In this document: in pieces, positions 4,755 to 61,764 of the stretch
Position numbering within the stretch: position 1 is the first letter of the stretch
Layout: each line of letters opens with the position of its first letter
Source: a virus
Reading direction: 5' to 3' (one strand)
Length of the DNA stretch: 64,000 nucleotides
Virus record (IMG/VR): IMGVR_UViG_3300045988_080466
Notes under the pieces: generated by a model
Told to the model about the DNA's origin: nothing
What the model saw: only the letters and a program-made list of their open reading frames with translations
The model's database searches: none
Translations under genes and position numbers: made by a program

Positions 4755-4767
4755 TTTTATTTAATTT

Positions 4768-20894: not shown

Positions 20895-21107
20895 TTATAA
20901 AGCGTCTATATCAATGACATCACCTACTTGGGCATTTGCGGCTTCGATGATGTCAACAAACTCACTCCAATCCCCAGGATAGTCTAAATCCCAGAGATTT
21001 ACATAAGTTTCAATGATTTTATCCTTAGCTTCTTGAAGGCTTCTGGCTGTAATTTTCTCAACCCAGACGCTATCACTGGTGCTAAAAGGAACTACGTATG
21101 TGTTCAT
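20895..21107 (-). CDS. hypothetical protein (70 aa)
   Basis: ORF in array. Confidence 0.45.
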   Translation of the reverse strand: MNTYVVPFSTSDSVWVEKITARSLQEAKDKIIETYVNLWDLDYPGDWSEFVDIIEAANAQVGDVIDIDAL

Positions 21108-44908: not shown

Positions 44909-45166
44909 TTATTTATTCACATTGAATGTTTCCTTACACCACCCTATCCATGTTCTTTTTATATTTGTCAATATATTTTTTATAGAAAGAGATGGAATCT
45001 GACGCATCAAATATATTACATACAGTGTATTTACAATTGGACACAAAGTGATTACGAATGAAACAGGGTTAATAGAAATCTCTATTTTTGCATAATCACA
45101 AATAAATGTGTATGAAATGAGAGTAACTAAATACAATATAACTGAAAATAACAATAATGTATTCAT
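44909..45166 (-). CDS. membrane protein (85 aa)
   Basis: Two hydrophobic helices. Confidence 0.5.
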   Translation of the reverse strand: MNTLLLFSVILYLVTLISYTFICDYAKIEISINPVSFVITLCPIVNTLYVIYLMRQIPSLSIKNILTNIKRTWIGWCKETFNVNK

Positions 45167-45190
45167 AATCTAATTAATTTTTAAAGTTAG

Positions 45191-45262
45191 TTGGGCTACT
45201 AGGATTCGAACCTAGACTACAACAGTCAAAGTGTTGTGTGCTAACCACTACACTATAGCCCA
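45191..45262 (-). tRNA. tRNA-Gln (UUG)
   Basis: TGGGCTA acceptor, loop CTTTGAC, T-arm CTAGG-TTCGAAT-CCTAG. Confidence 0.85.
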
Positions 45263-45268
45263 ATAATC

Positions 45269-45365
45269 AGATGACTTTTCTACATATTTTACCTCTAAGT
45301 AGTAGAGGGTTCTACTTATCCTAACTCTAGTATTTGTTGTTATATTGCTGTAAGTCATCTTTGTT
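45269..45365 (-). ncRNA. tRNA-leader hairpin family, copy 1 (ACAGCAA motif)
   Basis: Minus sense ACAAAGATGACTT-ACAGCAAT...AAGTCATCT, 9-bp closing stem, 6 nt before the tRNA-Gln 5' end. Confidence 0.6.
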
Positions 45366-45420
45366 GTTTATTTTAGCTAAATGGAATCTGATACTATTTC
45401 CAAAGTAACATATTCTTTAT

Positions 45421-45858
45421 TCATGTCATAAGTTGTTGACTTGCATCTACCGCTATTTTATCAGCCCTAGCATTAAATTCATCTTCATAATGTCCTTTTA
45501 CCCATTCAATATGAAGATTTCCTATAAGACTTCGCTTTTCTTTAACAATATTATCAAGTTCTTGTAAAACATCTAAATTTGTATTTCTCTTATACTTTAT
45601 ACTTCCAATCCGAGAAGTTCCTATTGCATACATAGAGTCACTAATAATAGTCACATCTTCTATATAAGCTGCTATACACTTAAATGCAATAATGATAGCT
45701 TTAAGCTCCATTCTGTTGTTAGTTGTATTTTTATAGCCTTTAGATACTTCTGCAATCTTAGTAAGTTTACCATCTACTTCTTTTACAAATACTACTCCTA
45801 CACCACCTTGGTTAAGAGCACTACTGTATGCACCGTCAGTATAAATTCTATATTTCAA
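45421..45858 (-). CDS. rnhA: ribonuclease HI
   Basis: IYTDGAY (D), NNRMELKAII (E), IISDSMY (D), WVKGHYEDEFNARADKIA (H..D). Confidence 0.85.
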   Translation of the reverse strand: MKYRIYTDGAYSSALNQGGVGVVFVKEVDGKLTKIAEVSKGYKNTTNNRMELKAIIIAFKCIAAYIEDVTIISDSMYAIGTSRIGSIKYKRNTNLDVLQELDNIVKEKRSLIGNLHIEWVKGHYEDEFNARADKIAVDASQQLMT

Positions 45859-46271
45859 GTTTCAGTTTTTTCTACCTGCTTACTTACTAAGAGATAAGAA
45901 TCTCTTCCCAAGCAAGTTGCAATTCTTAATAAATCATCGTCACTTTCAACAACAATTTTATTTAAGATGAAGGTGTCCATTTCAGAAGGAACTACCATTC
46001 TGCCTTTAAGCTCAACAAACTTCTGTTTCCAAAATACTAATTGAGGTTTATAACGTCTAACATTCCATTTTATTGGAGTAAGCTGTTCATCAGGGTTACC
46101 TGCCTTGAATCCATCTGCTTCCATTTCTTTACAGACTTCTTCAATAAAGAATCCAAAATAATAAGCTCTAGCTACATCACCTTTAATGAATCCTTCGTAG
46201 TAATCATCATTGGCGTACATTTCCTCCATAAAACGTTGTCTCCATTTATCGCTCTTTTCTAATGTAATCAT
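45855..46271 (-). CDS. hypothetical protein (138 aa)
   Basis: ORF coupled to rnhA. Confidence 0.5.
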   Translation of the reverse strand: MITLEKSDKWRQRFMEEMYANDDYYEGFIKGDVARAYYFGFFIEEVCKEMEADGFKAGNPDEQLTPIKWNVRRYKPQLVFWKQKFVELKGRMVVPSEMDTFILNKIVVESDDDLLRIATCLGRDSYLLVSKQVEKTET

Positions 46272-46297
46272 CTTGATGTAAATTTAAGTTTTACAAG

Positions 46298-46382
46298 TGG
46301 AGGGTGTCAGATTCGAACTGACGGACCCCGAAGGGCCGGCACGTTAGCAGTGTGCTGGGTTAAACCACTCCCCCAACCCTCC
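46298..46382 (-). tRNA. tRNA-Ser (GCU), class II
   Basis: Loop CTGCTAA; long variable arm GGCCC-TTCG-GGGTC. Confidence 0.85.
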
Positions 46383-46388
46383 TTACCA

Positions 46389-46628
46389 TTAACCCAATAA
46401 GTCGGTTAACTTATTAAGTGTTTGTTCGTTTTTGTTGGCTACTTCTTCAAGAGCTTGTTTCTCCGCCAAAGCAGCGTCAGCTTCTTGTTGTTTGATTGCA
46501 GCTTGTTCTCTAGCTTTAGTAATTACTCCAGACAAGCCGGAAACAGTGTTCTTAAATACTTTCAATAAGTTGTCAGCAGATGATGCTAAATCGGCAGCAG
46601 TACTAGCCTTCTTTGAAATTAATGCCAT
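46389..46628 (-). CDS. small Ala/Lys-rich coiled-coil protein (79 aa)
   Basis: ORF ending 6 nt before tRNA-Ser. Confidence 0.5.
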   Translation of the reverse strand: MALISKKASTAADLASSADNLLKVFKNTVSGLSGVITKAREQAAIKQQEADAALAEKQALEEVANKNEQTLNKLTDLLG

Positions 46629-46661
46629 AATCTTTATAAATTTAATTGTTAATATTAAGCG

Positions 46662-46743
46662 TATCCGAGGTCAGATTCGAACTGACACGAGCTTTGCTCA
46701 TTGGTTCCTAAGACCAACGCGGCTACCATTTCGCCACTCGGAC
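46662..46743 (-). tRNA. tRNA-Leu (UAG), class II
   Basis: Loop CTTAGGA; variable arm GAGC-AAA-GCTC. Confidence 0.85.
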
Positions 46744-46748
46744 AAGTA

Positions 46749-46828
46749 GCAAGGAGTCTATAGTGGGCTGCAGGACGTCTAAATCCACAGCGAACTAAAA
46801 CAATGGAAGATTTCGGGAGACTCCTTGC
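46749..46828 (-). ncRNA. tRNA-Leu 5' leader hairpin (11-bp closing stem; lacks the ACAGCAA motif)
   Basis: GCAAGGAGTCT (46749-59) pairs with AGACTCCTTGC (46818-28); 5 nt from the tRNA 5' end. Confidence 0.5.
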
Positions 46829-46835
46829 GAATATT

Positions 46836-47105
46836 TTAGTTGTGGGCTCTTAATAGCTCCCCATATTTGTAGTGATTACAATACCTATGTAAGTAGGCAA
46901 TGTAGACGTACTTATCCTTTATTAAGTCATAGTGCTTTTGTTGAAAGCGAAGAACAGAATCTCTGTCTCCATTTAAAAATTCAACATGATACTCTGCAAC
47001 TGAAGGATGCACAAAGATACTACTTTTAGTCGATTGTGCAAAGACAATCGCTATAAAAAATGTTAAAATTAAAACCAGTATTCTATTAGACTTTATAATG
47101 GTCAT
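46836..47105 (-). CDS. secreted or membrane-anchored small protein
   Basis: N-terminal ILVLILTFFIAIVFAQS signal-like segment. Confidence 0.5.
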   Translation of the reverse strand: MTIIKSNRILVLILTFFIAIVFAQSTKSSIFVHPSVAEYHVEFLNGDRDSVLRFQQKHYDLIKDKYVYIAYLHRYCNHYKYGELLRAHN

Positions 47106-47382
47106 ACAGCAATGAAATTAAATTTGGATTAATCCATTTCTGTGTGTCTATTGTTCTAAACAGATGCAGGAAATCACTCGCTACACGTTCATTGTCAAGA
47201 TACCAGTCAATTTTACTTATCTCAATTTCAAGGTCTTTAATAGACCTCTCATCGGGAAGAGACTCACAAATTTCATCAATTCTGTTATTAAGTCTCTTGG
47301 AACACATCACCAAACAGATTAATACTGTTACTGCTCTTACAAAGTAAATTGCAAGAAATAAACATATAAAAAGGTTCATCAT
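47086..47382 (-). CDS. membrane-anchored protein (98 aa)
   Basis: N-terminal TM MMNLFICLFLAIYFVRAVTVLICLV. Confidence 0.5.
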   Translation of the reverse strand: MMNLFICLFLAIYFVRAVTVLICLVMCSKRLNNRIDEICESLPDERSIKDLEIEISKIDWYLDNERVASDFLHLFRTIDTQKWINPNLISLLYDHYKV

Positions 47383-48335
47383 AAGCTCATTAGTTTTTCG
47401 TAAGCTGCTGTTAGTTCCTTAAATTTCTCTTCACTGCCACCTCTATCAGGGTGATAAACAAGAACCAATTTCCTATAAGCTGCTTTAATTATTTTCTTAT
47501 CAGTTGTTGGAGAGATTTGCAACATTGTGTAAAGAGAAGCGTAAGGATTAACTGTCTCTTGTTGGCGTTTAGCTTGTTCTCTTGAGAAATTATCCCACCA
47601 ACTCTGGTATTGGTGATTAAACCCTGCAAAATCATCATTAAACTCAAATCCTTGATTACCATAGAATCTAGCTCTCTGATATGCATTTTCTTGTTTAACC
47701 CTTTCTCTTTCTCTTCTTTCACGCTCTATCCTTTCTTCCCACTCTCTTTGTGCTCTTCTTGCTGCTTCTTGTGCCTTTCTTATGTTTTCCTCTACTTTAG
47801 CGGGAATCTCATAAAATATGTGGTCGAGAGTTTTATCAGCAATAGTCCACAAGATACTAATATGGATGGGCTTACTAATAGCATACTTCATTCCAGCATC
47901 CCAGAGATTTCCTTTCACATTAGCGTATATGGAAATATTTTGCCGATTTTCTTTCAAACCTTTCTCTATAGCTTCTATAACAGCATAGAAATAAGGCTCT
48001 TTCTTCCCTTCAAGAAGTTTCAGTATAGCTCTGAATTGAGGAATCCTTTCCCTATCAAGTTGGCTACTTAACAAATAAGCAAACCACTTAAAGTGATTGT
48101 ACTTTTTCAATTCCGAGAAATTACACTTTATAAGGGAATGTTCAGGCTCAAAGTCAGATTCCTCAACGAAATGTGCTCCGCTAAAGAAATTATAGTATTC
48201 AAACTCAAGATTGTACTTCCTACAAGCATATATAAACGCTTTATCTCTACTTGTAATAATGTCTCTTTCCTCTCCCTCATTTAGATTAGAAGAGCCATTA
48301 AAGTATTTTAAAGAAATCTTTTTAAAAACATTCAT
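47379..48335 (-). CDS. J-domain (DnaJ-like co-chaperone) protein
   Basis: C-terminal YTMLQISPTTDKKIIKAAYRKLVLVYHPDRGGSEEKFKELTAAYEKL with HPD tripeptide. Confidence 0.75.
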   Translation of the reverse strand: MNVFKKISLKYFNGSSNLNEGEERDIITSRDKAFIYACRKYNLEFEYYNFFSGAHFVEESDFEPEHSLIKCNFSELKKYNHFKWFAYLLSSQLDRERIPQFRAILKLLEGKKEPYFYAVIEAIEKGLKENRQNISIYANVKGNLWDAGMKYAISKPIHISILWTIADKTLDHIFYEIPAKVEENIRKAQEAARRAQREWEERIERERRERERVKQENAYQRARFYGNQGFEFNDDFAGFNHQYQSWWDNFSREQAKRQQETVNPYASLYTMLQISPTTDKKIIKAAYRKLVLVYHPDRGGSEEKFKELTAAYEKLMSL

Positions 48336-48361
48336 TGTCTCATCTATTTAGTTGTTAAACG

Positions 48362-48435
48362 TGGGCCTGACCGGACTTGAACCGATAACCTCAACATTAT
48401 GAGTGTTTTGCTCTGACCGATTGAGCTACAGGCCC
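48362..48435 (-). tRNA. tRNA-Met type (CAU; could be elongator Met or lysidine-Ile2)
   Basis: GGGCCTG acceptor, loop CTCATAA, T-loop TTCAAGT. Confidence 0.8.
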
Positions 48436-48438
48436 AAT

Positions 48439-48465
48439 AAAAAAGGACAGCTGTTAACTGTCCTT
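48439..48465 (-). terminator. rho-independent terminator (minus strand), 3 nt upstream of the tRNA 5' end
   Basis: AAGGACAG/CTGTCCTT 8-bp stem followed in minus sense by TTTTTTATT. Confidence 0.8.
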
Positions 48466-48470
48466 AGTTT

Positions 48471-48881
48471 TTACTCTTCAATTTCTTTATCATCGGATTC
48501 TTCATCCATAAGAATGATTCCTAAACCGACAACGTTGCCAAGTTCTTTTGGCAATGTGACTGCATCTTCTGGAAACCATTCGTTGTAAGTTTCAACAGCA
48601 ATTTTCCAATCAACGAGAACATCACGAAGTCCGCTTTTCTTAGTATGGATAGTTTCAACAAACTGTTTCGGATTGAAGTCTTTATCTACCGGAGATAAAG
48701 ATGTTGTGTTGTTGATTGATAAATCCATGAGGTTCGTTAACTCATTGATGAGTCTTTGAGCTTCTCTTTTGTAGGTGGCAATTACTTGTTCTTGTTCTGC
48801 CTTTACAATGTTAGCAATGTTAGTTGCGCGAGCGTTCAGCAATCCTTGTCCGCTGCGAGATAAGATACTTTTAAATTTCAT
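48471..48881 (-). CDS. hypothetical protein (136 aa)
   Basis: ORF. Confidence 0.55.
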   Translation of the reverse strand: MKFKSILSRSGQGLLNARATNIANIVKAEQEQVIATYKREAQRLINELTNLMDLSINNTTSLSPVDKDFNPKQFVETIHTKKSGLRDVLVDWKIAVETYNEWFPEDAVTLPKELGNVVGLGIILMDEESDDKEIEE

Positions 48882-48911
48882 TTCCTTACGTAATTTTTAT
48901 TAAGATATTTT

Positions 48912-49487
48912 TTAATCAATCAAAAGCCAGCGATAATCAACTTTATCTGCATAGATAGCGTCAAATACCAGTTGTCCAAACTGCTTACATACATATAAAG
49001 CCGTTTCTTCATCCTTACAGGATAAAATCCCTACATAGGAGCCGGAAGCGCTGACCCCAGCATAAGAATAGAAGCAACCAGGGCCAGCATCACTACTGCT
49101 ATCAGGAGCGTTGCTGCTAAGCAGATAATATGTTTCTCCTTCGCAGATGAACTTTCCGATAATATTCTTCTTTTCACTGTTGGGCAACTTACTTTCCAGA
49201 TAGAAACGAACCCAGGGATACCATATTCTTCCTTCTGTTAAGCTGAAATCATGACCCTGATTCAAAGCACGAAGCACAGTCTGTAGTTCATACATTTTAC
49301 GAATGGAACAAGGAGCGGATTCCAACCAAGAAGGATACTTCTCTCCTAACGCTTCAAAAGCATCAGCCACACTCTTTACCCTTGATTTGATGTCTTCATC
49401 AATAAAGCTAATTGTGCGAGTGCTTTTATCATATACAGGAATCTTACCTTCTGGAGCCTGTACTTCAATTACATGTTTCTTACTCAT
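48912..49487 (-). CDS. hypothetical protein (191 aa)
   Basis: Track ORF 48912..49601 trimmed to ATG 49487 (MSKKHVIEV) because its N-terminal extension overlaps a tRNA. Confidence 0.55.
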   Translation of the reverse strand: MSKKHVIEVQAPEGKIPVYDKSTRTISFIDEDIKSRVKSVADAFEALGEKYPSWLESAPCSIRKMYELQTVLRALNQGHDFSLTEGRIWYPWVRFYLESKLPNSEKKNIIGKFICEGETYYLLSSNAPDSSSDAGPGCFYSYAGVSASGSYVGILSCKDEETALYVCKQFGQLVFDAIYADKVDYRWLLID

Positions 49488-49516
49488 ACTAAAATATTTA
49501 ATAAAGTTTTTAATTG

Positions 49517-49599
49517 AGCCCTCTGTCCGATTCGAACGGACGTGTCCTTGCGGAACATCATTACAAGTGACGTGCAATCGACCACTATGCGAAGAGGGC
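49517..49599 (-). tRNA. tRNA with UGU (Thr) anticodon and a class II-type long variable arm
   Basis: GCCCTCT/AGAGGGC acceptor, 3-bp D stem, loop CTTGTAA, variable TTCC-GCAA-GGACAC (GNRA-capped), discriminator U. Confidence 0.7.
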
Positions 49600-49605
49600 A
49601 AATAC

Positions 49606-49727
49606 AGATGTGAGTTTTTAAGACGGACTCGAACCGAAATCTCCTAGCAAGCTAGGCGTAATAACCATTATACTATACTTCCTTGTTGGTGGGAGTTAAT
49701 TATTAACTTGCTGTTACACATCTTTAG
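49606..49727 (-). ncRNA. tRNA-leader hairpin family, copy 2 (loop carries tRNA-like arms)
   Basis: Stem AGATGTG/CACATCT, TAACAGCAAG motif; loop contains a D-arm-like GTATAATGGTTATTAC, CCTAG-CTTG-CTAGG hairpin and CGG-TTCGAGT-CCG. Confidence 0.55.
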
Positions 49728-49751
49728 ATATAACCTTGCCAGGTTAGGTTG

Positions 49752-49823
49752 TCGAGAGCGGGGGATTCGAACCCCAACTACCACAGTGACAGTGTGGCGT
49801 GCAGCCATTACACTACGCCCTCG
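49752..49823 (-). tRNA. tRNA-Asp (GUC)
   Basis: Loop CTGTCAC, T-arm GGGG-TTCGAAT-CCCC; acceptor/D junction slightly irregular, ends +/- 3 nt. Confidence 0.75.
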
Positions 49824-49960
49824 AAGGAGTGGATGTCAGCCGTTTCTATTCCACCATTGCGTACTACGCTGCTGACTAGCGTCTAAGACTTCTTTTCCTC
49901 ACGTCGTCTTAGAATGTACTTGATTATTATTGCCAGTTAAGGGAGGATTAAGTACAAGAG

Positions 49961-50035
49961 CACCGCCCACGGGATTCGAACCCGTATTAGCATCATCGAA
50001 AGTGATGTGTCCTAGTCCAATTAGACGAGAGCGGC
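49961..50035 (-). tRNA. tRNA-Glu (UUC)
   Basis: GCCGCTC acceptor, loop CTTTCGA, T-arm ACGGG-TTCGAAT-CCCGT. Confidence 0.85.
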
Positions 50036-50042
50036 AGAAAGC

Positions 50043-50165
50043 GGAAGACCTTTTATTACGTTGCTCTACCTGACTGAGCTAAATGAAGCAAGCTTCACTA
50101 TGAGATTTGAACTCATGACCGACGGCTTACAAGGCTGAATAGTTATTGCTGCAAGTCTTCCTTAT
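50043..50165 (-). ncRNA. tRNA-leader hairpin family, copy 3: encloses a circularly permuted tRNA-like domain (YrlA / Y-RNA-like architecture)
   Basis: Basal stem GGAAGAC/GTCTTCC, TTGCAGCAAT motif. Then, 5' to 3': T-arm ATGAG-TTCAAAT-CTCAT, acceptor-like 7-bp stem AGTGAAG-CTTG-CTTCATT closed by a tetraloop, U8-A9, canonical D-arm GCTC-AGTCAGGTA-GAGC. Confidence 0.6.
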
Positions 50166-50178
50166 TTATTAACTTAAC

Positions 50179-50493
50179 CTATTTTTCTTTTGGCTTAAAA
50201 ATGAATCTGGCAGGATAGATTTCACCAAGACCTGGCTTGTCATATTCAACTTCCCAACCATTTTTACGGTATTCATCTTCTACATTTAACCATCTGTTTT
50301 CCCAAATAGTTTGAACAGTTATGTCGTCAAGGGGGCAAAGACGAATAATTTCAGTAATAACTTCATCTTGCAATATTACAGTGCTATAAGCATCATAATT
50401 CTTTACAAGAAGATTGTTAAACGCCCCATACACAAAATCAGGAATGGATGCAAGTTTATGTTCCTTAGCATCTTTTGGTGTAAATACTTTCAT
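50179..50493 (-). CDS. hypothetical protein (104 aa)
   Basis: Track ORF trimmed from GTG 50544 to ATG 50493 (MKVFTPKD). Confidence 0.5.
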   Translation of the reverse strand: MKVFTPKDAKEHKLASIPDFVYGAFNNLLVKNYDAYSTVILQDEVITEIIRLCPLDDITVQTIWENRWLNVEDEYRKNGWEVEYDKPGLGEIYPARFIFKPKEK

Positions 50494-50521
50494 ATTATTT
50501 ATTTTTAAGTAGTAATCTCTA

Positions 50522-50725
50522 TTAATCCCAAAACCAAATTTCACGAGCCATAGCTCGTCTCATCGATATTTTACCATCAAGAATTTTAAACCATTTTTGG
50601 TGTCTGAAATGTTGAAATCTACATTTTCCTTTCTTTCCACCTAATACGTGATAAATCCACCGTCTTCCATGAGAGCGTTTACCAATGTATTTACTAGCAG
50701 TTTTCCATTTCTTTCCGTTGCTCAT
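50522..50725 (-). CDS. small highly basic protein (67 aa)
   Basis: Lys/Arg/Trp-rich ORF. Confidence 0.4.
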   Translation of the reverse strand: MSNGKKWKTASKYIGKRSHGRRWIYHVLGGKKGKCRFQHFRHQKWFKILDGKISMRRAMAREIWFWD

Positions 50726-50743
50726 ATTATTAATAAAGGTTAG

Positions 50744-50831
50744 AGGAGGCTGTAGGAGTCGAACCTACTCAACGAATGGGTACGTTACATCGGATTTCAA
50801 GTCCGTTCCATTACCGTTCTGGCAAACCTCC
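50744..50831 (-). tRNA. tRNA-Ser (UGA), class II
   Basis: Loop CTTGAAA, long variable arm with AACG/CGTT stem. Confidence 0.8.
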
Positions 50832-50860
50832 ATTTTATTCATAAAATAACATTATTTACG

Positions 50861-50944
50861 GGTGTAGTATGGGATTCGAACCCATGCGTTTCTTATGTAC
50901 CAGAACCACAATCTGGCGGCATCAACCACTAGCCGAACTACACC
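50861..50944 (-). tRNA. tRNA-His (GUG) with encoded G-1 and an unusually long (about 14 nt) variable region
   Basis: G-1:C73, stem CCAGA/TCTGG, loop TTGTGGT; variable TACATAAGAAACGC. Confidence 0.75.
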
Positions 50945-50952
50945 ATGTTTAT

Positions 50953-51303
50953 TTATCGGTAAACGAAGAAATATCTTGGAAACTCTCCTCCAAATAGAGT
51001 AAGGGCTACATTACATAACCAAATGCTTGGAACAGGGACATCAGAACAAGAAATCCATTCATAAGTTGCTCCAAATTCATCTTGTTGTGGAGTGATATGA
51101 AAATAAAGGTCGTTTCTTCCTACCTCAATTTCTGTATCAACTTTCAATGTAACAACTTCTTTATTGTCAGGATATTCGGTAACATACCATTCTAAGAAAT
51201 CATCAGCACCGTTTACCATTTGTAAATCATCAATGCTTCCAGCCCAAGGAATATCAACAAACCATCGTTGAGCTAATTTTTTAAATGTTAGTTCAAGTTT
51301 CAT
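50953..51303 (-). CDS. hypothetical protein (116 aa)
   Basis: ORF. Confidence 0.5.
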   Translation of the reverse strand: MKLELTFKKLAQRWFVDIPWAGSIDDLQMVNGADDFLEWYVTEYPDNKEVVTLKVDTEIEVGRNDLYFHITPQQDEFGATYEWISCSDVPVPSIWLCNVALTLFGGEFPRYFFVYR

Positions 51304-51320
51304 ATTATTTCTTTATTAAG

Positions 51321-51394
51321 TGGAGCCAGTGGGACTCGAACCCACGACTTTCTGCGTGCAAGGCAGACGTTCTAGCCATCTGAACTATGACCCC
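51321..51394 (-). tRNA. tRNA-Ala (UGC)
   Basis: G3:U70 pair present, loop CTTGCAC. Confidence 0.85.
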
Positions 51395-51411
51395 AAGTTA
51401 TAGTTGAGGGG

Positions 51412-51485
51412 AGGGGAGTGTCGGGTTCGAACCGACAACCTATGGGTTAACAGCCCATTGCTCTGCCAATTATAGCTAACTCCCC
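51412..51485 (-). tRNA. tRNA-Asn (GUU)
   Basis: GGGGAGT acceptor, loop CTGTTAA. Confidence 0.85.
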
Positions 51486-51491
51486 GAATAC

Positions 51492-51562
51492 GGATTACTA
51501 TTTAAATGTGTCGCTATTTTCTGGTGCAATAATTTAAGGTAATTGCTGTAAGTAATCCTTGT
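51492..51562 (-). ncRNA. tRNA-leader hairpin family, copy 4
   Basis: ACAAGGATTACT-TACAGCAATTA...AGTAATCC, 6 nt before tRNA-Asn. Confidence 0.6.
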
Positions 51563-51901
51563 AATATATTTTAATATGTAAAAACAGTAGTCATTTATAA
51601 TCCCTATGTGTAGGAACTTACTCCCCCATTGGAAGTGTTCCCGTTGGTAACCAAGTATAGCTGTGTGAAGCTTGCTCGAAATACCATACAAAAGCTCTTT
51701 TTAATAATTTCATAACTTTCATACTTTTAAGGGTTAAATGAATAAATAAATAATCTAAAAACTCTGGTCAACCACACGCATCCCACCAGTTTGTACTTCC
51801 CGCTCCTCTTAGTACAAGTGACTCTGTTGTTCCTACAGATTATCTCCTAAGTATCCAAGCGAGTTATCACCTGCCAAAGCCTTGTCCGTTGTGAGTTTTT
51901 G

Positions 51902-51975
51902 TGCGCCCGTTGTGATTCGAACACAAGACCCACGGATTAAAAATCCGTTGCTCTAACCAACTGAGCTACGAGCGC
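51902..51975 (-). tRNA. tRNA-Lys (UUU)
   Basis: GCGCTCG acceptor, loop TTTTTAA. Confidence 0.85.
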
Positions 51976-51997
51976 AATCCTAAATTGCCTTTCGGGC

Positions 51998-52067
51998 AGA
52001 ACACTATAATAAGCTGTGTCAAATTAAAAGTTTGATGCTGAATATAATTGCTGTAAGTGTTCTTTAT
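51998..52067 (-). ncRNA. tRNA-leader hairpin family, copy 5
   Basis: ATAAAGAACACT-TACAGCAATTA...AGTGTTCT; 22 nt (with a GCC/GGC mini-hairpin) before tRNA-Lys. Confidence 0.6.
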
Positions 52068-52085
52068 TATTAACTAAAATGGAAG

Positions 52086-52167
52086 AGCCCAGAGTCGGAT
52101 TCAAACCGACGACAGATTTCTCAAACGGTTTTGCAGACCGCCCCCTTAATCACTCGGGCATCTGGGC
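52086..52167 (-). tRNA. tRNA with GCA (Cys) anticodon, U73, and a long variable region
   Basis: GCCCAGA/TCTGGGC acceptor, 3-bp D stem CCC/GGG, loop CTGCAAA, variable TTGA-GAAA-TCTGTC. Confidence 0.7.
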
Positions 52168-52173
52168 ATAAAC

Positions 52174-52236
52174 AGAAGTCTTTTTGTTGACAATATAACC
52201 AATTGTTGTATTAAATTTGCTGTGAGACTTCTTTGT
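52174..52236 (-). ncRNA. tRNA-leader hairpin family, copy 6
   Basis: ACAAAGAAGTCT-CACAGCAAAT...AGACTTCT, 6 nt before tRNA-Cys. Confidence 0.6.
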
Positions 52237-52430
52237 ATTTTTGGTATTCTGAAATATTCTACTAAAGAGAACCACTTTCGATAGTCTTCTCACGTACCAA
52301 TCGAGTTAATTCCCTGTCACACTTACGTGCCTTGTGCAGTTTTTTACCTGCTGCCCAGTACACTTATTTCTTGTTGAATAAGTATGAAAAAGTCACCCGA
52401 ATTTATCGTCACATTCGGTAAACGGTGAGG

Positions 52431-52504
52431 TCGGACGGGTAGGACTTGAACCTACGACCCTTACCTTATCAGAGTAATGCTCTAACCAACTGAGCTACCG
52501 TCCG
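52431..52504 (-). tRNA. tRNA-Ile (GAU)
   Basis: Loop CTGATAA, canonical D and T arms; C1:G72. Confidence 0.8.
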
Positions 52505-52719
52505 GATTACGAGACTTGCCTATATGCGTCCATATAAGTAGTATCTCAACCTATCTTCTACTTCGGTCGTTGATAGGACTGATTTCCTCCCACCTTTGCG
52601 CATCCATATCCGAATTTGGAGAGGCGTAGGAAGGATATTTGGTATTCCACGATAAGAGGTCGTTACTCTCTCACCACCGCTTGTTTAAGGCGGCTATGCA
52701 ACTCTACACTATATCGTCT

Positions 52720-53103
52720 TTATAATTTATAAATTAAAGTTTTATATTTGTCTTTCATTATTTTGAATCCCAATGGAAGTAAAGCATATTCATATACCTT
52801 TCTTCTCCTCTCATCGTCAGGATAAACCTCAATAGAGTCTCCTGGGAATTTCCATTTAGCATAATCAATAAAGTCAAGTAAACATTTTTTAGCCCACAAT
52901 AAAGACTTTATTCCGTCTTTACCAGTTGTTTTACCTTCTTGATAACCATGCTTCCTTTTAGTGGTTACATAAAAGGCAAAGTTTAAGGTCTCATTGTAAG
53001 TTCTATATACTTCACAGACAATTATTTGATTACACTCATTACGCGATTTATAAATGTAATGGTCAAGGTATTCTTTACCTGATTCTCTTTGTACATCATA
53101 CAT
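52720..53103 (-). CDS. hypothetical protein (127 aa)
   Basis: Trimmed to ATG 53103. Confidence 0.5.
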   Translation of the reverse strand: MYDVQRESGKEYLDHYIYKSRNECNQIIVCEVYRTYNETLNFAFYVTTKRKHGYQEGKTTGKDGIKSLLWAKKCLLDFIDYAKWKFPGDSIEVYPDDERRRKVYEYALLPLGFKIMKDKYKTLIYKL

Positions 53104-53410
53104 AATCCTCACATTCTTCTCTAATTAACTTTTTAGCTTCATATCGTTTTTTACGATTTTCTTTCTTTACGTCATACTGATGCATTTTACTTCTGCCGAC
53201 AACTGTACTATGTTTAAGTTTCTTAGCAAACTTGGAATCATTAAGAAAATCTGTAATAGATTCACAATTTCTATAAGTTGCTATTGTGTTTGGATAACTA
53301 TGTTTAATTCCTCTTATCGGGACATCAAAAGTTCCCCATGAATTGTAAATCTTTCTTGCTCTCGAAATCCATTTATTTCTTGTGCGTTCACGTCTAAGTT
53401 CTCTATTCAC
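53096..53410 (-). CDS. hypothetical basic protein (104 aa), GTG start
   Basis: ORF; Arg/Lys-rich. Confidence 0.45.
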   Translation of the reverse strand: MNRELRRERTRNKWISRARKIYNSWGTFDVPIRGIKHSYPNTIATYRNCESITDFLNDSKFAKKLKHSTVVGRSKMHQYDVKKENRKKRYEAKKLIREECEDYV

Positions 53411-53514
53411 AACTATCTTTTATTAATGATGTTACTTATATCCATTCATTTGTTATTTTTAGTAGAATTGGTTGGTTATCCAGTCACACCACGTGGAGGT
53501 TTCTACTATGTGAC

Positions 53515-53587
53515 CTGCGGAGCTGGGAATCGAACCCAGAACCCGAGGATATGAGCCTCGTGAGATACCATTTCTACGCACTCCGCA
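53515..53587 (-). tRNA. tRNA-Met type (CAU), second copy (initiator/elongator/Ile2 unresolved)
   Basis: Stem CGAGG/CCTCG, loop CTCATAT, T-arm CTGGG-TTCGATT-CCCAG; D arm irregular. Confidence 0.7.
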
Positions 53588-53590
53588 ATA

Positions 53591-53761
53591 TCATTTGTTT
53601 ATTCCTTGCATTAATATATCTCCAGTAATATCACCTGCTACATTTAGAAGATACTCTGCAAAATTATTTTCAGCTGATGGTTGGGTATTTTTATCTATCC
53701 TTTTTGCTATTTTAAGCAATTCATCTAACTTTTTAATAATTAAATCGAGTTTGTCTTCCAT
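53591..53761 (-). CDS. small hypothetical protein (56 aa)
   Basis: Below cutoff; MEDKLDLIIKKLDELLKIAKRIDKNTQPSAENNFAEYLLNVAGDITGDILMQGINK; the plus-strand track ORF here is its antisense. Confidence 0.4.
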   Translation of the reverse strand: MEDKLDLIIKKLDELLKIAKRIDKNTQPSAENNFAEYLLNVAGDITGDILMQGINK

Positions 53762-53776
53762 AGTAGTAATTATATG

Positions 53777-53852
53777 TGCGGATAGAGAGACTCGAACTCT
53801 CCCCTTCTGATTGGAAGTCAGACATGCTCAAAACCATTGACACCACACCCGC
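53777..53852 (-). tRNA. tRNA-Gly (UCC)
   Basis: Loop CTTCCAA, T-arm GAGAG-TTCGAGT-CTCTC; long D loop. Confidence 0.8.
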
Positions 53853-53857
53853 AGATT

Positions 53858-53879
53858 AAAAAGGCTTAATTAGCCTTTT
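53858..53879 (-). terminator. A/U-flanked hairpin, probable terminator (overlaps the MazG-like stop)
   Basis: AAAAGGCT-TAATT-AGCCTTTT. Confidence 0.45.
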
Positions 53880-54180
53880 GTTTGTTATATTTTTCAATCC
53901 ATTTGTCACACTTTACTTTGAGTCTTTCTTCAAAGAGTTTTTGGAAATCATCTCCGTAAACACTTACTCCCAAGTCTACTACATTAATAAATGTATCGAC
54001 CAATTCATCACAAAGATTGAGAGCTTCTGTTTTCTTATAATCAGAAAGGCCAGTAATAATACTGATTTCTCCCATTACCTCACCACTCTCTTCTGCCAAC
54101 TTAATGGCAATGTCCTGAGTTGTTCGCCCGTTCTTAATAGACTTTCCAACTTCAACAACGTGTTCAATCACATCAATCAT
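53866..54180 (-). CDS. MazG-like nucleoside triphosphate pyrophosphohydrolase
   Basis: 104 aa all-helical; LAEESGEVMGE (EExxE) and CDELVD motifs. Confidence 0.6.
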   Translation of the reverse strand: MIDVIEHVVEVGKSIKNGRTTQDIAIKLAEESGEVMGEISIITGLSDYKKTEALNLCDELVDTFINVVDLGVSVYGDDFQKLFEERLKVKCDKWIEKYNKQKAN

Positions 54181-54203
54181 AATTTATTTCCTTAATTGTG
54201 AGT

Positions 54204-54235
54204 ACAAAGATACTACATATTTTTAATGTTACAAA
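54204..54235 (-). promoter_or_regulatory. Bacteroidota-type promoter
   Basis: Minus-sense TTTG (54232-35), N20, TATCTTTG (54204-11). Confidence 0.75.
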
Positions 54236-54340
54236 ATAGTAACTGTTAATTTCTGTTAAAGAATGGACTACTTTCCCAAGCAATCCATTTATGTGTCTAA
54301 TTTAAAAAATAAAATTATAGAAACTATGAGAACTTTTTTG

Positions 54341-54423
54341 CTGAACGGTCAGGATTCGAACCTGAGTGAGCTTTCGCTGATGGTTTTGGAGACCATTCTC
54401 GTCGACCACTTGAGTACCGCCCA
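54341..54423 (-). tRNA. tRNA with CCA (Trp) anticodon, G73, and a class II-type long variable arm
   Basis: 3-bp D stem CTC/GAG, stem ATGGT/ACCAT, loop CTCCAAA, variable CAGC-GAAA-GCTCAC (GNRA-capped). Confidence 0.7.
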
Positions 54424-54429
54424 GTGTAC

Positions 54430-54488
54430 AGATGTCCTTTTTGTATATTCAGTAAATAATATTAAATATTGCTGCAAGACATCTTTAA
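54430..54488 (-). ncRNA. tRNA-leader hairpin family, copy 7
   Basis: TTAAAGATGTC-TTGCAGCAATA...GACATCT, 6 nt before tRNA-Trp. Confidence 0.6.
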
Positions 54489-54510
54489 AAATAATAAAAA
54501 TGAACAAATG

Positions 54511-54594
54511 TGGGCCCGGCAGGACTCGAACCTGCAGTCCAATTAAGGAGGGGATTTACAGTCCCCGCGGCTACCAATTACCGGTTACGTGCCC
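54511..54594 (-). tRNA. tRNA-Tyr (GUA), class II
   Basis: Stem GGGGA/TCCCC, loop CTGTAAA, variable arm TCC-TTAATT-GGA. Confidence 0.8.
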
Positions 54595-54601
54595 GAAAAA
54601 C

Positions 54602-54664
54602 AGATGTGCATTTACGATGTTAATATTTGGTAAACATTATAAGTTTGCTGTTGCACATCTTTGT
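54602..54664 (-). ncRNA. tRNA-leader hairpin family, copy 8
   Basis: ACAAAGATGTGCA-ACAGCAAAC...TGCACATCT, 7 nt before tRNA-Tyr. Confidence 0.6.
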
Positions 54665-54696
54665 AATCAATTAACAACTAAAAATCAACACAAAAG

Positions 54697-54769
54697 TCTG
54701 GGTAGCAGGATTCGAACCTGCGGTCTCTACATCCCAAATGTAGCGTGTTGCCAACTCCACCATACCCAG
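54697..54769 (-). tRNA. tRNA-Pro (UGG)
   Basis: C1:G72, loop TTTGGGA. Confidence 0.85.
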
Positions 54770-54773
54770 AAAT

Positions 54774-54791
54774 GGAGACTATTTTGTCTCC
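54774..54791 (-). terminator. hairpin at gene end / tRNA-Pro leader (weak terminator)
   Basis: GGAGAC-TATTTT-GTCTCC; weak U tract. Confidence 0.35.
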
Positions 54792-55408
54792 AAATATTTC
54801 ATTAAATCAAGAGATGAACTTCCTGCATACAATGCTCCAGCATTAATTGCATCTTTCAACTTCTCAATTACTACATCCACTGTTTGTCCTTTACAAGCCT
54901 TATAAATCACTGTCCTCTTCTTGGAAGTCATGAACTTCTTATAATTTGGAAACGTACTATTTACAACAGCCCAGAAACTTACCCATTCTGCTTCGTTTGT
55001 ATAATTGCAGGTAAGACCCGATTCCGCTTTAGAAATCTTCCTAGAACATTTAACAGCATTTTGCGCCTTCACTACCTTGTTTGCCTTTGCAACATTAGAT
55101 ATTATTTCCTTTTTCAATTCCTTTATTTCTCTTATATATAAATAGTTAGAGATAAAGGTCTTAAGTCCAGCTAAGTTAAATGTCAATATCTGTGGTCCTT
55201 CTTTCACTTGAACCAAATATACTGTCTTAGCATTTAAAGGATTTACTATTCTAATATCACAAGTGATTTTAGCTGCTTCTGGAAAATGGTCACTTATTCC
55301 TATTTTAAGCTTTCCAATGTTATAATAAACACTGTTAGTTGTTTTGGAATTTGTGACTTTATCCTTCTTGGTCATTAAAGACTCAAGATACTTACTTATA
55401 TACGACAT
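54779..55408 (-). CDS. hypothetical protein (209 aa)
   Basis: ORF. Confidence 0.55.
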   Translation of the reverse strand: MSYISKYLESLMTKKDKVTNSKTTNSVYYNIGKLKIGISDHFPEAAKITCDIRIVNPLNAKTVYLVQVKEGPQILTFNLAGLKTFISNYLYIREIKELKKEIISNVAKANKVVKAQNAVKCSRKISKAESGLTCNYTNEAEWVSFWAVVNSTFPNYKKFMTSKKRTVIYKACKGQTVDVVIEKLKDAINAGALYAGSSSLDLMKYLETK

Positions 55409-55635
55409 TAGTGTTGATATTTACGGATTCTACACTTGCAATCAGGGTCATGAACTACTCCCATAGTTCTTGTCTTAGCACTACCTGTGGTAAATGAAAT
55501 ATACGTATGACCACTGTATTCAAATTTCTCGACTCTTGTTGAATATGCCTGAACTTTAATGACAGAGTATCGTGGCTCAACTCTAGTACATCCAACTAAG
55601 GATATAATAACTAATAAGTAAATTACCTTTCTCAT
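55408..55635 (-). CDS. small lipoprotein
   Basis: Trimmed to ATG 55635: MRKVIYLLVIISLVGCTRV (lipobox). Confidence 0.6.
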   Translation of the reverse strand: MRKVIYLLVIISLVGCTRVEPRYSVIKVQAYSTRVEKFEYSGHTYISFTTGSAKTRTMGVVHDPDCKCRIRKYQH

Positions 55636-55636
55636 A

Positions 55637-55780
55637 CTAGGCCTTTTTTGGATAAAAAGATGCAACTATTGAGGATAAGAAAAGCCCTCCTGCCATACCA
55701 CAAAGGTAAGCACTAGGTTCCTTAAATAGGATTGAAGCCACAAGCATAATAAATCCCAACACTATTAATAATCCATTCAT
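55637..55780 (-). CDS. small membrane protein (47 aa)
   Basis: Below cutoff; MNGLLIVLGFIMLVASILFKEPSAYLCGMAGGLFLSSIVASFYPKKA. Confidence 0.4.
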   Translation of the reverse strand: MNGLLIVLGFIMLVASILFKEPSAYLCGMAGGLFLSSIVASFYPKKA

Positions 55781-55814
55781 AATATTAATCTTTAATTAAT
55801 AACTCATTTAATTG

Positions 55815-55891
55815 TGGGGAATGGCAGAATCGAACTGCCGCTATCGTCCTGGATTTTCAGTCCAGCGCTCTACCAACTGAGCTAATTCCCC
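55815..55891 (-). tRNA. tRNA-Phe (GAA) with 9-nt variable region
   Basis: Loop CTGAAAA; variable GACGATAGC instead of the usual 5 nt. Confidence 0.8.
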
Positions 55892-55978
55892 GTTTGCCTG
55901 CGAACCTCACAGTCTCTTTTTTAGTTCACAGGCTACTCTCTATCCTCCCGTATTCTGGGATTTGACACTATTGATTAC

Positions 55979-56077
55979 GGATTAGGTTCGTGCCTCTTCT
56001 TACCTTCCGGTACCTTCGAGAGCTTTCGTCCTTATTTATATAGTATAAGTTGTGTACTTGCTGTACCTAATCCTTGT
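55979..56077 (-). ncRNA. tRNA-leader hairpin family, copy 9
   Basis: ACAAGGATTAGGT-ACAGCAAGT...ACCTAATCC; 87 nt (with an extra 10-bp hairpin) upstream of tRNA-Phe, directly downstream of the TROVE/vWA gene. Confidence 0.55.
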
Positions 56078-56116
56078 TAGACATTACCTATCTACTTAAT
56101 CTTTACCTAACCGCTG

Positions 56117-60729: not shown

Positions 60730-60753
60730 CTTTTTAGGTATTTAAATTGATTG

Positions 60754-61328
60754 TGGACCTGGGCGGAGTCGAACCGCCGTCCAAACAAAGTCCAATAATA
60801 GAATTTTACGTGTGTCTTGATTTAATTATATCACCAGTTAAGTTCTGGGTGTAGATAGTTTTATTAGAAGAGCTAGATTCTTTACAAGTGGGCTCATCTA
60901 GCACCTTCCCACTTAACTAATTAGCAAACTACCAAACTTAAAGGTTCAGAAGCTGACGCTTCCAAACCTGGGCTGACCGAAGTCACTCTTCCACCACTCC
61001 ATTTACGTTGGAGAACGGATGATATTTAGAGATTCGTCACATCTCTTGGACCACATCTTCCATCTGCTTTACGACATAGGAGATTTCAGCTTTACTAACC
61101 TTTGGCTTTCAAGTTAAGTGGGCTGCCCTATATGCTTCTTCCCACACCTCTTCTGTTTCTAGGTCTCTCCAATTAACCCGACTTAGAGCTAAATTAATAG
61201 ATAAGCCAGCAGCTTAGGCTGCCATTCTGTAGTCGCTTCTTTCAGCATTTATTGTTTTCCTTTGTTTAAAGAGATTGCGCTCTACACGTTCTATTACCTT
61301 CTCTATGCTGTCAAAACCATACAGGCCC
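60754..61328 (-). ncRNA. ssrA: tmRNA (transfer-messenger RNA), about 575 nt
   Basis: 5' GGGCCTGTATGGTTTTGACAGC... pairs with 3' ...GGACGGCGGTTCGACTCCGCCCAGGTCCA, giving an acceptor stem with G3:U70 and a T-arm. Internal tag frame GCT GAA AGA AGC GAC TAC AGA ATG GCA GCC TAA (AERSDYRMAA), stop inside a GCAGC/GCTGC hairpin. Confidence 0.8.
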
Positions 61329-61597: not shown

Positions 61598-61764
61598 TTC
61601 TTTTTTACTTTAAATTGATAGTATTCGTTCCATCTGTTATTTATAGAGGCTTTGGACTCTCATATCTAAGATATGGCTACATTAAACGGGCGATTTGCCC
61701 TGTATTCACATACAAGACAAATCTTTACTAATTTAAAAAAATGAAGTAACAACATAAATTTTTG

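Follow-up and report, generated by a model that had tools for sequence, protein, structure and literature searches.

ACAGCAA hairpin RNAs accompany genes for Ro60-like DUF2828 proteins in phages and bacteria and are their candidate Y-RNA-like partners

The record IMGVR_UViG_3300045988_080466 of the IMG/VR virus collection was analyzed over a window of 64,000 nucleotides, an apparent part of a large phage genome with a G+C content of ~36% and with genes almost all on the minus strand. Besides genes of DNA and RNA metabolism (NrdD, helicases, Pnkp, ligase, and RNase H), the window contains 22 tRNAs detected by ARAGORN, one more detected by Rfam alone, and a transfer-messenger RNA (tmRNA). Its nearest relatives are uncultured viral contigs of 100–190 kb, and a megablast search with the tRNA island found no close cultured relative among the GenBank phages. 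Nine minus-strand hairpin elements lie within 45269–56073, next to the gene of a DUF2828 protein (Table 1). Here, we show that these hairpins belong to a strand-specific family of structured RNAs that is linked to DUF2828 genes and that the DUF2828 protein of the window has a predicted Ro60-like fold.

The nine elements were located by reading the minus strand of 45100–56200 and by a mechanical scan, and all of them lie where a previous reading of the DNA letters, conducted without database searches (the sequence-only reading), had put them. Each element consists of A-A-R-G-A, the 5′ strand of a closing helix, one to three bases, CAGCAA, a loop of 29–94 nt, the 3′ strand of the helix, and a G. 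The closing helix comprises 7–9 bp of a sequence that varies among the copies. A-A, G-A, CAGCAA, U-C, and G are invariant over the nine copies, and all of them have CAGCAA at the same distance of 10 nt from the first helix base. The proposal of an invariant, single-stranded ACAGCAA could be retained only in part: the full heptamer is strict in seven copies, with GCAGCAA in those linked to tRNA-Glu and tRNA-Trp, and the CAGCAA-bearing motif is essentially unpaired in eight of the nine folds, the tRNA-Thr-linked copy being the only one in which it is extensively paired.

The pairing of the helix strands and the compensatory changes between them, which had been taken as a sign of selection on RNA, were confirmed statistically. 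In a loop-trimmed alignment, 93.8% of the helix cells are paired, compared with 67% in shuffled alignments and 35–47% when the partner columns were slid, and double (compensatory) changes occur in seven of the nine helix pairs. The covariation score was 0.70 versus 0.22, a value reached by none of 500 shuffles. The closing helix is present in the minimum free energy and centroid folds of all nine copies. Orthologs of the tRNA-Tyr-linked copy show one and the same pair as G-C, G.U, and A-U, and the related locus L011 carries double changes in its tRNA-Trp- and tRNA-Glu-linked copies. Wobble pairs are G.U in the tRNA-sense strand only, as predicted for a helix that forms at the RNA level. These data demonstrate that the hairpins are an RNA-level structured family.

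Table 1. Hairpin elements, tRNA-like modules, and the DUF2828 gene in the 64,000-nucleotide window (distances are from the end of the element to the 5′ end of the next tRNA)
Feature	Position	Strand	Description
Copy 1	45269..45360	-	Helix AGAUGACUU/AAGUCAUCU; ACAGCAA; 66-nt loop; 6 nt upstream of tRNA-Gln; Dicty_Class_I 26.8 bits
Copy 2	49606..49723	-	Helix AGAUGUG/CACAUCU; 94-nt loop with tRNA-like core; 6 nt upstream of tRNA-Thr
tRNA-like cargo in copy 2	49621..49676	-	D, anticodon-like, and T arms; without acceptor stem; Rfam tRNA 28.1 bits, model positions 7-64
Copy 3	50043..50161	-	Helix GGAAGACUU/AGGUCUUCC (one G.U); GCAGCAA; 93-nt loop; YrlA-like cargo; 7 nt upstream of tRNA-Glu
YrlA-like permuted tRNA-like module in copy 3	50057..50124	-	T arm, capped acceptor-like hairpin, D arm
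Copy 4	51492..51558	-	Helix GGAUUACU/AGUAAUCC; 42-nt loop; 6 nt upstream of tRNA-Asn; Dicty_Class_I 21.1 bits
Copy 5	51998..52063	-	Helix AGAACACU/AGUGUUCU; 41-nt loop; 22 nt upstream of tRNA-Lys; Dicty_Class_I 27.7 bits
Copy 6	52174..52232	-	Helix AGAAGUCU/AGACUUCU; 34-nt loop; 6 nt upstream of tRNA-Cys; Dicty_Class_I 27.2 bits
Copy 7	54430..54484	-	Helix AGAUGUCUU/AGGACAUCU (one G.U); GCAGCAA; 29-nt loop; 6 nt upstream of tRNA-Trp; Dicty_Class_I 30.7 bits
Copy 8	54602..54660	-	Helix AGAUGUGCA/UGCACAUCU; 33-nt loop; 7 nt upstream of tRNA-Tyr
Copy 9	55979..56073	-	Helix GGAUUAGGU/ACCUAAUCC; 69-nt structured loop; begins 44 nt past the DUF2828 stop codon; next tRNA 87 nt on
Gene of DUF2828 protein (predicted Ro60-like fold), 573 aa	56117..57838	-	Pfam DUF2828 + DUF7788/vWA; PHROG 850 'RNA-binding protein'

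A covariance model (R1) built from the loop-trimmed window copies fully recovered only the three copies with the shortest loops, because loop lengths are too variable. In its place, we used a rule-based scanner requiring CAGCAA, a helix that begins 10 nt before this motif and has no fewer than 7 Watson-Crick pairs, and a loop of at most 260 nt. A relaxed scan revealed no credible tenth copy in the window; the candidate at 9015–9147 (motif ACAGCCA, 10-bp helix) was rejected, as it lies within the open reading frame 8748–9176. The helix was also assessed at sites whose definition does not presuppose pairing. Over the window and 78 related loci, 362 of 397 A-R-G-A-N7-CAGCAA sites in sense orientation (91%) are followed by a complementary strand (at least 7 Watson-Crick pairs within 260 nt), compared with a background of 2.2% when the downstream sequence was shuffled and 2.6% on the opposite strand.

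The 78 loci of this viral set surround DUF2828 homologs with 39–99% identity to the window protein, and in them the scanner found 476 elements on the strand of the gene versus 13 on the opposite strand. The helix sequence of copy 9, which adjoins the gene, is retained in relatives with 68–99% protein identity. In the distant phages L056, L068, L070, L074, and L077, hairpin units follow the DUF2828 gene directly, head to tail and without tRNAs, with as many as seven or more units in a row and 4-nt GAUA spacers between them. Including L280, such GAUA-spaced, tRNA-free tandem arrays comprise 4–11 units.

The association was also found when starting from the RNA. Viral contigs were scanned for three spaced ACAGCAA motifs, and five true arrays with enough flanking DNA were obtained (L108, L126, L134, L166, and L183), all five within ~150 nt of a DUF2828+DUF7788 gene whose product is only 22–49% identical to that of the window. 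Most of the 120 three-motif matches are due to chance, and the two that we inspected (L084 and L132) are CAG/CAA coding repeats. A contig binned as a giant virus (L088, IMGVR_UViG_GVMAG-M-3300023174-155) carries three tandem ACAGCAA hairpins at 11479–11700 in an A+T-rich stretch; this locus ends before the gene flank comes into view, and the observation bears on the hairpins alone.

Among 80 DUF2828 loci from bacterial assemblies taken at one genome per species (Lachnospiraceae, Erysipelotrichaceae, Solobacterium, and others), 44 contain one to five sense copies (93 sense versus 6 antisense elements), which lie at most ~400 nt upstream of the DUF2828 gene in most of the loci listed. Cultured phages carry the pair as well. 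The Escherichia coli Felixounavirus VpaE1 has four copies after its DUF2828 gene, amid a tRNA block, in a region that is 96–100% conserved in more than 250 Felixounavirus records, Felix O1 included; these copies have no Rfam match to Dicty_Class_I, YrlA, or tRNA. Five tandem copies follow the gene in Leptolyngbya phage Lbo-JY46, and three copies each are found in Enterococcus phage VRE9_3 and in Bacillus phage Nate, where one starts 7 nt after a sigma70-like TTGACA-17-TATAAT promoter. In Listeria phage LMSP-25, a promoter-like site is followed by three copies and then by the DUF2828 gene. In this phage (L281 8523–9734 and 11295–12236), the gene and its three leader hairpins stand between a tRNA array and downstream RNA-repair genes annotated as tRNA-splicing ligase (RtcB), RNA ligase, and HD phosphohydrolase, a layout that recalls the Salmonella operon rsr-yrlBA-rtcBA. 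Across the family, the number of copies per locus ranges from 3 to 13. Together, these data show that the RNA and the DUF2828 gene travel together across very distant phages and bacteria.

The sequence-only reading had described the neighboring gene as a Ro60-like TROVE/vWA gene. Its family label was not borne out by Pfam, which assigns the product to DUF2828 and DUF7788 rather than to TROVE, whereas the resemblance to Ro60 was recovered at the level of the predicted fold. An AlphaFold model built on a 13-sequence alignment (predicted local distance difference test score, pLDDT, 73.7) is helical over the first 350 residues and has a C-terminal α/β (vWA) domain. In a Foldseek search against the PDB, the seven best, approximately full-length matches were all Xenopus Ro60 or Deinococcus Rsr, with E-values of 4.5e-7 to 7.7e-6, and vWA domains ranked next. 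A profile of canonical DUF2828 proteins had the Ro60 (TROVE) of Thermus phage phiLo as its best PDB match, with a marginal E-value of 0.03. A D-x-S-G-S motif is conserved. A single-sequence search with the window protein against the PDB returned nothing useful, and NCBIfam and PADLOC hold no model for it. Since the fold match places Ro60 first and there is no TROVE match, we use the term "Ro60-like" for the modeled fold, for which it is justified, and not for family membership. DUF2828 has also been reported in plants and in mimivirus-like proteins.

The part enclosed by the hairpin is variable. Loop lengths are bimodal, with short loops of 20–60 nt, which have an A-rich tract ahead of the 3′ strand of the helix, and long loops of mostly 80–130 nt, 122 of 192 of which contain a T-loop motif. 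About a third of the elements carry tRNA-like cargo resembling YrlA, and about half are short-loop copies without a tRNA-like part. The Rfam YrlA model (RF02553) matches inside window copy 3 (34.6 bits, E-value 2.9e-4) and inside elements of L003 (40.1 bits) and L074 (39.4 bits, full model length); none of these matches reaches the gathering score of 69. The alignment of the L074 element follows the YrlA model in the T arm, the acceptor-like hairpin, and the D arm but not in its 5′ ggCgaAUG segment. This segment is the YrlA Ro60-binding motif GNCGAAN0-1G (Chen et al. 2014, PMC4201824). The GACGAAAG stretch in the loop of copy 9 fits that motif but is not kept by orthologs and most likely occurs there by chance. 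A YrlA-like tRNA mimic had been noticed in one copy of the window, and the copy next to tRNA-Glu does contain it; a second copy, linked to tRNA-Thr, also has tRNA-like cargo, a core without an acceptor stem. In three further loci, a tRNA scoring above the Rfam threshold lies inside the handle-enclosed loop rather than downstream of it (L056 2935–3050, with the tRNA at 2961–3033; L234 4724–4826, with the tRNA at 4747–4817; and L021 17336–17468).

A rearranged form of the element is found in Lachnospiraceae-type loci. Here, the handle is a capped hairpin, NNNCA-UGUUUG-UGNNN, followed by (CU)ACAGCAA and occupying the position that an anticodon arm would have in a tRNA-like RNA (L158 11133–11246; L199 4076–4195 and 4246–4364; further cases in L201–L209). 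As read from its sequence, the capped form is a circular permutation of the YrlA-like form: in the latter, the RNA ends lie on the handle and the acceptor-like arm is capped, whereas in the permuted form the ends lie on the acceptor and the handle is capped. The capping loop repeats the G-U-U-U found after the helix in the open form. Because the handle and the letters of the "spacer" are kept through the permutation, which a processing site would not survive, the handle behaves as a binding module rather than as a cleavage signal.

The observation that seven of the nine window copies end 6–7 nt from a tRNA 5′ end was correct, and the spacing recurs in relatives. Of the 476 sense elements, 207 (43%) end 5–10 nt before a tRNA, at 6 nt in 125 cases and at 7 nt in 50, and the intervening spacer has the form G, W-W-W, A/U, U/C. 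Another 40 elements directly precede a further element, and the remaining 229 precede neither. Seen from the tRNAs, only 207 of the 1172 on the same strand in these islands (18%) have an element upstream. The framing as a tRNA-leader element was therefore not upheld: tRNA adjacency is frequent, not defining, and the DUF2828 gene is the constant partner. The sharp mode at 6 nt and the conserved spacer form, together with the seven window copies, nevertheless speak for an explanation in which the hairpins are tRNA 5′-leader elements, that is, processing determinants, insulators, or protectors that aid RNase P or another RNase and have no independent role. We consider this explanation unlikely, since most island tRNAs are not preceded by an element, the tandem arrays of six loci are free of tRNAs, Firmicutes and phages of Listeria, Bacillus, and Enterococcus have copies in the DUF2828 gene leader, the tRNA can lie inside the loop instead (L056 and L234), and the capped, permuted form has no free ends.

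Instead, we favor the explanation that the hairpins are Y-RNA-like partner RNAs of the DUF2828 protein, which would constitute a second Ro60-like family, and we regard this explanation as moderately probable. We infer that the hairpins are expressed as stable RNAs, processed, and directly bound by the DUF2828 protein. A role as Y-RNA-like ligands had been suggested by the sequence-only reading; the gene linkage, the Ro60-like fold, and the YrlA-like loops favor it, and the lack of the YrlA Ro60-binding motif does not. The hairpins would be small non-coding RNA genes of two modules, a constant handle and a variable cargo. The handle consists of a 7–9-bp end helix with an unpaired A on its 5′ side and G-U(U) on its 3′ side, followed by the single-stranded (CUU)ACAGCAA(W), and would be the part that the protein binds. 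As cargo, the hairpins carry a short A-rich linker or a YrlA-like module of 80–130 nt that mimics tRNA, and this part may recruit or mimic other molecules, e.g. tRNA-binding enzymes or nucleases. In the window phage, the hairpins would be co-transcribed with the tRNAs, and the RNase P cut at the 5′ end of the downstream tRNA would leave the conserved 6–7-nt G-U-rich tail as the hairpin 3′ end; in other phages, the units may be released from GAUA-spaced arrays or start right after a promoter. A probable role of the resulting particle is in RNA surveillance, RNA repair, or counter-defense during infection, by analogy with Ro60-Y RNA particles, the phiLo Ro60-Yrl-PNPase complex, the neighboring RNA-repair genes, and Bas63 gp130.

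Several observations weigh against this proposal. All of its functional claims are drawn from sequence and gene neighborhood, and the tight 6-nt spacing to tRNAs (43% of the copies) also fits a role in tRNA processing. The product of 56117–57838 has no match to Pfam TROVE at E ≤ 0.01, and its structural match to Ro60 is modest, with template modeling scores of 0.33–0.48 for a model whose pLDDT is only 73.7. GNCGAAN0-1G is absent from the handle in all nine window copies. Yersinia jumbo phage fHe-Yen9-04 has a DUF2828 gene and, when scanned, no recognizable hairpin. The sampled Felixounavirus homologs are ~22–23% identical to the window protein, and the link to gp130 is positional. Finally, 1–4 nt separate the end of the last copy from the Shine-Dalgarno sequence of the downstream DUF2828 gene in L158 and L199 (phage and Lachnospiraceae).

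The last observation, together with the leader copies in Listeria, Bacillus, and Enterococcus phages, would suit cis-regulatory operators or sponges, with the handle as an operator through which DUF2828 represses its own translation and with dispersed copies that titrate the protein. We judge this improbable. The window and its relatives have copies downstream of the gene and over 11 kb of tRNA island, and an operator would not need an elaborate tRNA-like cargo that is conserved across phyla. It would still need binding of the protein to the handle, which makes it a variant of the partner RNA proposal rather than a true rival. This explanation, the tRNA-leader one, and the two that follow are each weaker than the proposal of DUF2828 partner RNAs.

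A slightly poorer candidate still is that of protein-independent decoy or anti-defense RNAs that, for instance, soak up anticodon nucleases, in which case the linkage to DUF2828 would reflect a common island only. The tRNA islands with Pnkp, ligase, and RtcB genes and the tRNA mimics in about a third of the elements would agree with such a role. The short-loop copies, about half of the total, keep the handle strictly and have no tRNA-like part, and the copies in bacterial assemblies lie a few hundred nucleotides upstream of the gene where coordinates are listed; both points argue against it. Finally, self-processing ribozymes that cut a polycistronic transcript, or DNA-level repeats such as promoters and recombination or mobile-element sites, are very unlikely: precise head-to-tail arrays need some cutting activity, twister-like, hatchet, and hammerhead ribozymes occur in the same islands, and the repeats are multi-copy and dispersed, but no ribozyme family in Rfam matches at the elements, a conserved single-stranded part of only ~10 nt with freely variable loops leaves little room for a catalytic core, G.U is tolerated in the sense strand only with a strand bias of 476 to 13, and the near-identical Dictyostelium consensus belongs to RNAs that are reported to be expressed and abundant (PMC7919456).

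The islands contain further RNAs of note. The phage tmRNA lies at 60751–61328 on the minus strand (81.2 bits), and related loci have a tmRNA too. The tRNA found by Rfam alone, at 53777–53852, was missed by ARAGORN. The minus-strand genes of tRNA-Cys (52085–52167), tRNA-Trp (54340–54423), tRNA-Thr (49516–49599), and tRNA-His (50860–50943) are 83–84 nt long each, and in the alignments of tRNA-Cys and tRNA-Trp the variable region contains an additional arm of ~10 nt, an uncommon feature in these isoacceptors. Four non-coding minus-strand stretches of 90–215 nt (52505–52720, 51760–51900, 49825–49960, and 55892–55978) have no Rfam family match; they adjoin tRNA-Ile, tRNA-Lys, tRNA-Asp/Glu, and tRNA-Phe, respectively, have a G+C content apparently above that of their surroundings, and could be further structured RNAs. 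A twister-P1-like ribozyme match at 61626–61688 on the minus strand of the window (47.4 bits against an Rfam threshold of 67.2, E-value 7e-8) lies ~75 nt downstream of tRNA-Arg(ACG) and is also present in the relative L003 (6207–6269, 44 bits). Near its tmRNA/tRNA island, the relative L045 has a hatchet ribozyme (5320–5467, 91.5 bits) and a RAGATH-1 hammerhead (1208–1284, 76.5 bits). Among the protein-coding genes on the minus strand of the window, those at 2878–3792, 7351–8541, 21104–21910, 45421–45858, and 47379–48335 form a set of RNA-repair or counter-defense type, encoding a Pnkp-like kinase-phosphatase, an ATP-dependent ligase with an RNA-ligase domain, an ADP-ribosylglycohydrolase, an RNase H, and a DnaJ-domain protein; the gene of the last sits within the tRNA island.

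That Ro60-like proteins can be encoded next to tRNA-like RNAs was already known, as was the Ro60-like fold of the Felixounavirus protein (from a preprint). With regard to Rfam and the literature searched, the RNA family, its ACAGCAA handle, and the pairing with DUF2828 across phyla are new, and so are the multi-copy, tRNA-fused, tandem, and permuted layouts and the near-identity to the Class I consensus of Dictyostelium described below. DUF2828, a widespread family of unknown function, thereby acquires a probable RNA partner and becomes part of a testable ribonucleoprotein. Its members are found in hundreds of sequenced phages, among them Felix O1, Listeria phages of the A511/P100 type, which are employed in food safety, and abundant large phages, the closest relatives of which were sampled from human feces. 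If the partnership is correct, the Ro60/Y-RNA principle of a constant protein handle, exchangeable cargo, and tRNA mimicry would extend to a second family with a different handle. As cultured E. coli, Salmonella, Listeria, and Bacillus phages carry the system, it is directly testable.

The closest parallels among bacterial RNAs are the YrlA-type Y RNAs (RF02553, PMC4201824). These RNAs are encoded beside the gene of a ring-shaped protein with HEAT repeats and a vWA domain, and the neighbor of the hairpins is Ro60-like by model; in both, paired RNA ends enclose a tRNA-mimicking module (in a subset of the hairpins, such as copy 3 and those of L003 and L074), and some hairpin loci likewise lie near RtcB or other RNA-repair genes. 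In contrast to the YrlA system, the neighbor is a DUF2828+DUF7788 protein and not a Pfam TROVE protein, and the proposed binding handle of helix and ACAGCAA replaces GNCGAAN0-1G. There are 3–13 hairpins per locus compared with one or two Y RNAs, half of them without a tRNA-like part, and the units either are joined to tRNA genes or follow one another head to tail.

Two phage systems are also comparable. Thermus phage phiLo encodes a Ro60 with the RNAs Yrl1 and Yrl2 beside its gene, and a complex with the host PNPase has been reported (PMC12135203). As in the loci described here, a phage-encoded Ro60-type protein has phage RNAs adjoining its gene, which in our case are putative partners. The phiLo protein, however, is a true TROVE protein, and its RNAs have a CGAA motif and a stem-bulge-stem layout, occur in two copies, and are not linked to tRNAs. 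The second system is gp130 of the E. coli Felixounavirus Bas63, which was found by PhageMaP to resemble Ro60 in structure, to be encoded directly upstream of tRNA genes, and to counter the ppl defense system; its authors guessed that some of the annotated tRNAs may be Y RNAs, and the RNA was not identified (preprint, 10.1101/2024.10.10.617714). This position matches that of the VpaE1 DUF2828 gene, which precedes four ACAGCAA hairpins, and we infer from gene position only that gp130 is its ortholog. The hairpins found here differ from the authors' suggestion in that they are not tRNA genes. Since this Felixounavirus homolog is reported to counter a bacterial defense, the hairpin RNAs may belong to an anti-defense device.

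There is also a likeness in sequence to a eukaryotic RNA. The statement of the sequence-only reading that no described element resembles these hairpins overlooks the Class I RNAs of Dictyostelium (Dicty_Class_I_RNA, RF01414), which have almost the same consensus. At the E-value level, this is the only Rfam family that matches the short-loop copies, and no families besides Dicty_Class_I, YrlA, and tRNA match at the elements. Five matches are located in the window (21–31 bits), five in L003 and L074, and one in L199, and all 11 fall on elements in sense orientation. The best score of 30.7 bits is below the gathering score of 41.5, and a search of seven related loci gave no gathering-level match. 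Class I RNAs are defined by a short variable helix that joins the ends, an 11-nt unpaired motif, a variable remainder, and the termini AAG/CUGU; they are reported to be expressed, cytoplasmic, and abundant, and no species other than dictyostelids was found to have them (Kjellin et al. 2021, PMC7919456).

Our comparison comprised 356 unique phage copies and 55 published Dictyostelium sequences. The CUUACAGCAA motif, helix, and A-rich tract of Class I RNAs are also present in the phage hairpins, and the putative hairpin ends resemble the AAG start and the CUGU end. In both, the unpaired motif comes right after the 5′ strand, as CCUUACAGCAA(U) in Dictyostelium and (C)UUACAGCAA(W) in phages, and the near-invariant U3, C6, C9, A10, and A11 are kept in phages, U3 less strictly (~60%). 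The phage consensus, with percentages, is C78 U60 U55 A90 CAGCAA, the last six being 100% since they were part of the scan rule. All phage copies and 46 of the 55 Dictyostelium sequences have the helix start 10 nt ahead of CAGCAA; the two groups also share C-U-U-A preceding and W following CAGCAA, as well as an unpaired A that precedes the helix. The phage flanks A94-A87-G88 ... U79-C88-U87-G94-U50 have the letters of the Class I termini, with the register 1 nt off at the 3′ flank. Total lengths of the short form are 55–67 nt in phages and 42–65 nt in Dictyostelium, and, by eye, a few Dictyostelium members (asu_can_20 and ppa_can_99) have T-arm-like cargo. The long loops of DdR-66 and DdR-67 contain GGUGGGAG...GUGAAAUACCACC, which may resemble a conserved stretch of large-subunit rRNA and would then be a further instance of cargo that mimics an RNA of the cell.

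The two groups also differ. Dictyostelium RNAs have one nucleotide more (U) between the helix and the final G, and their genes are free-standing, with a Dictyostelium upstream sequence element (DUSE) promoter ~60 nt upstream and a T-run of the RNA polymerase III type, and are probably transcribed by that polymerase, whereas in bacterial viruses the copies form part of tRNA operons or tandem arrays. CIBP/Rnp1A, the protein known to bind Class I RNAs in Dictyostelium, is an RNA recognition motif protein and not Ro60-like; four proteins are reported to have been pulled down with the Class I RNA DdR-21, including GuaB, NdkC, and DDB_G0281243, which has no known function. The likeness, as read from the aligned letters, may reflect either homology or convergence. 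It is a tentative and rather doubtful idea that phage hairpins and Class I RNAs are one RNA class whose handle of terminal helix, ACAGCAA, and G-U tail docks Ro60-like proteins of the DUF2828 type. The near-identical handle makes an RNA class that has long been an orphan accessible to a concrete experiment. If the idea were true, a second Ro/Y-like ribonucleoprotein lineage would extend over phages from four or more bacterial phyla, (pro)phage regions of bacteria, eukaryotes, and probably giant viruses, and the Class I RNAs, functionally unexplained since 2004, would be given a candidate partner protein as well as an evolutionary origin, perhaps via amoeba viruses.

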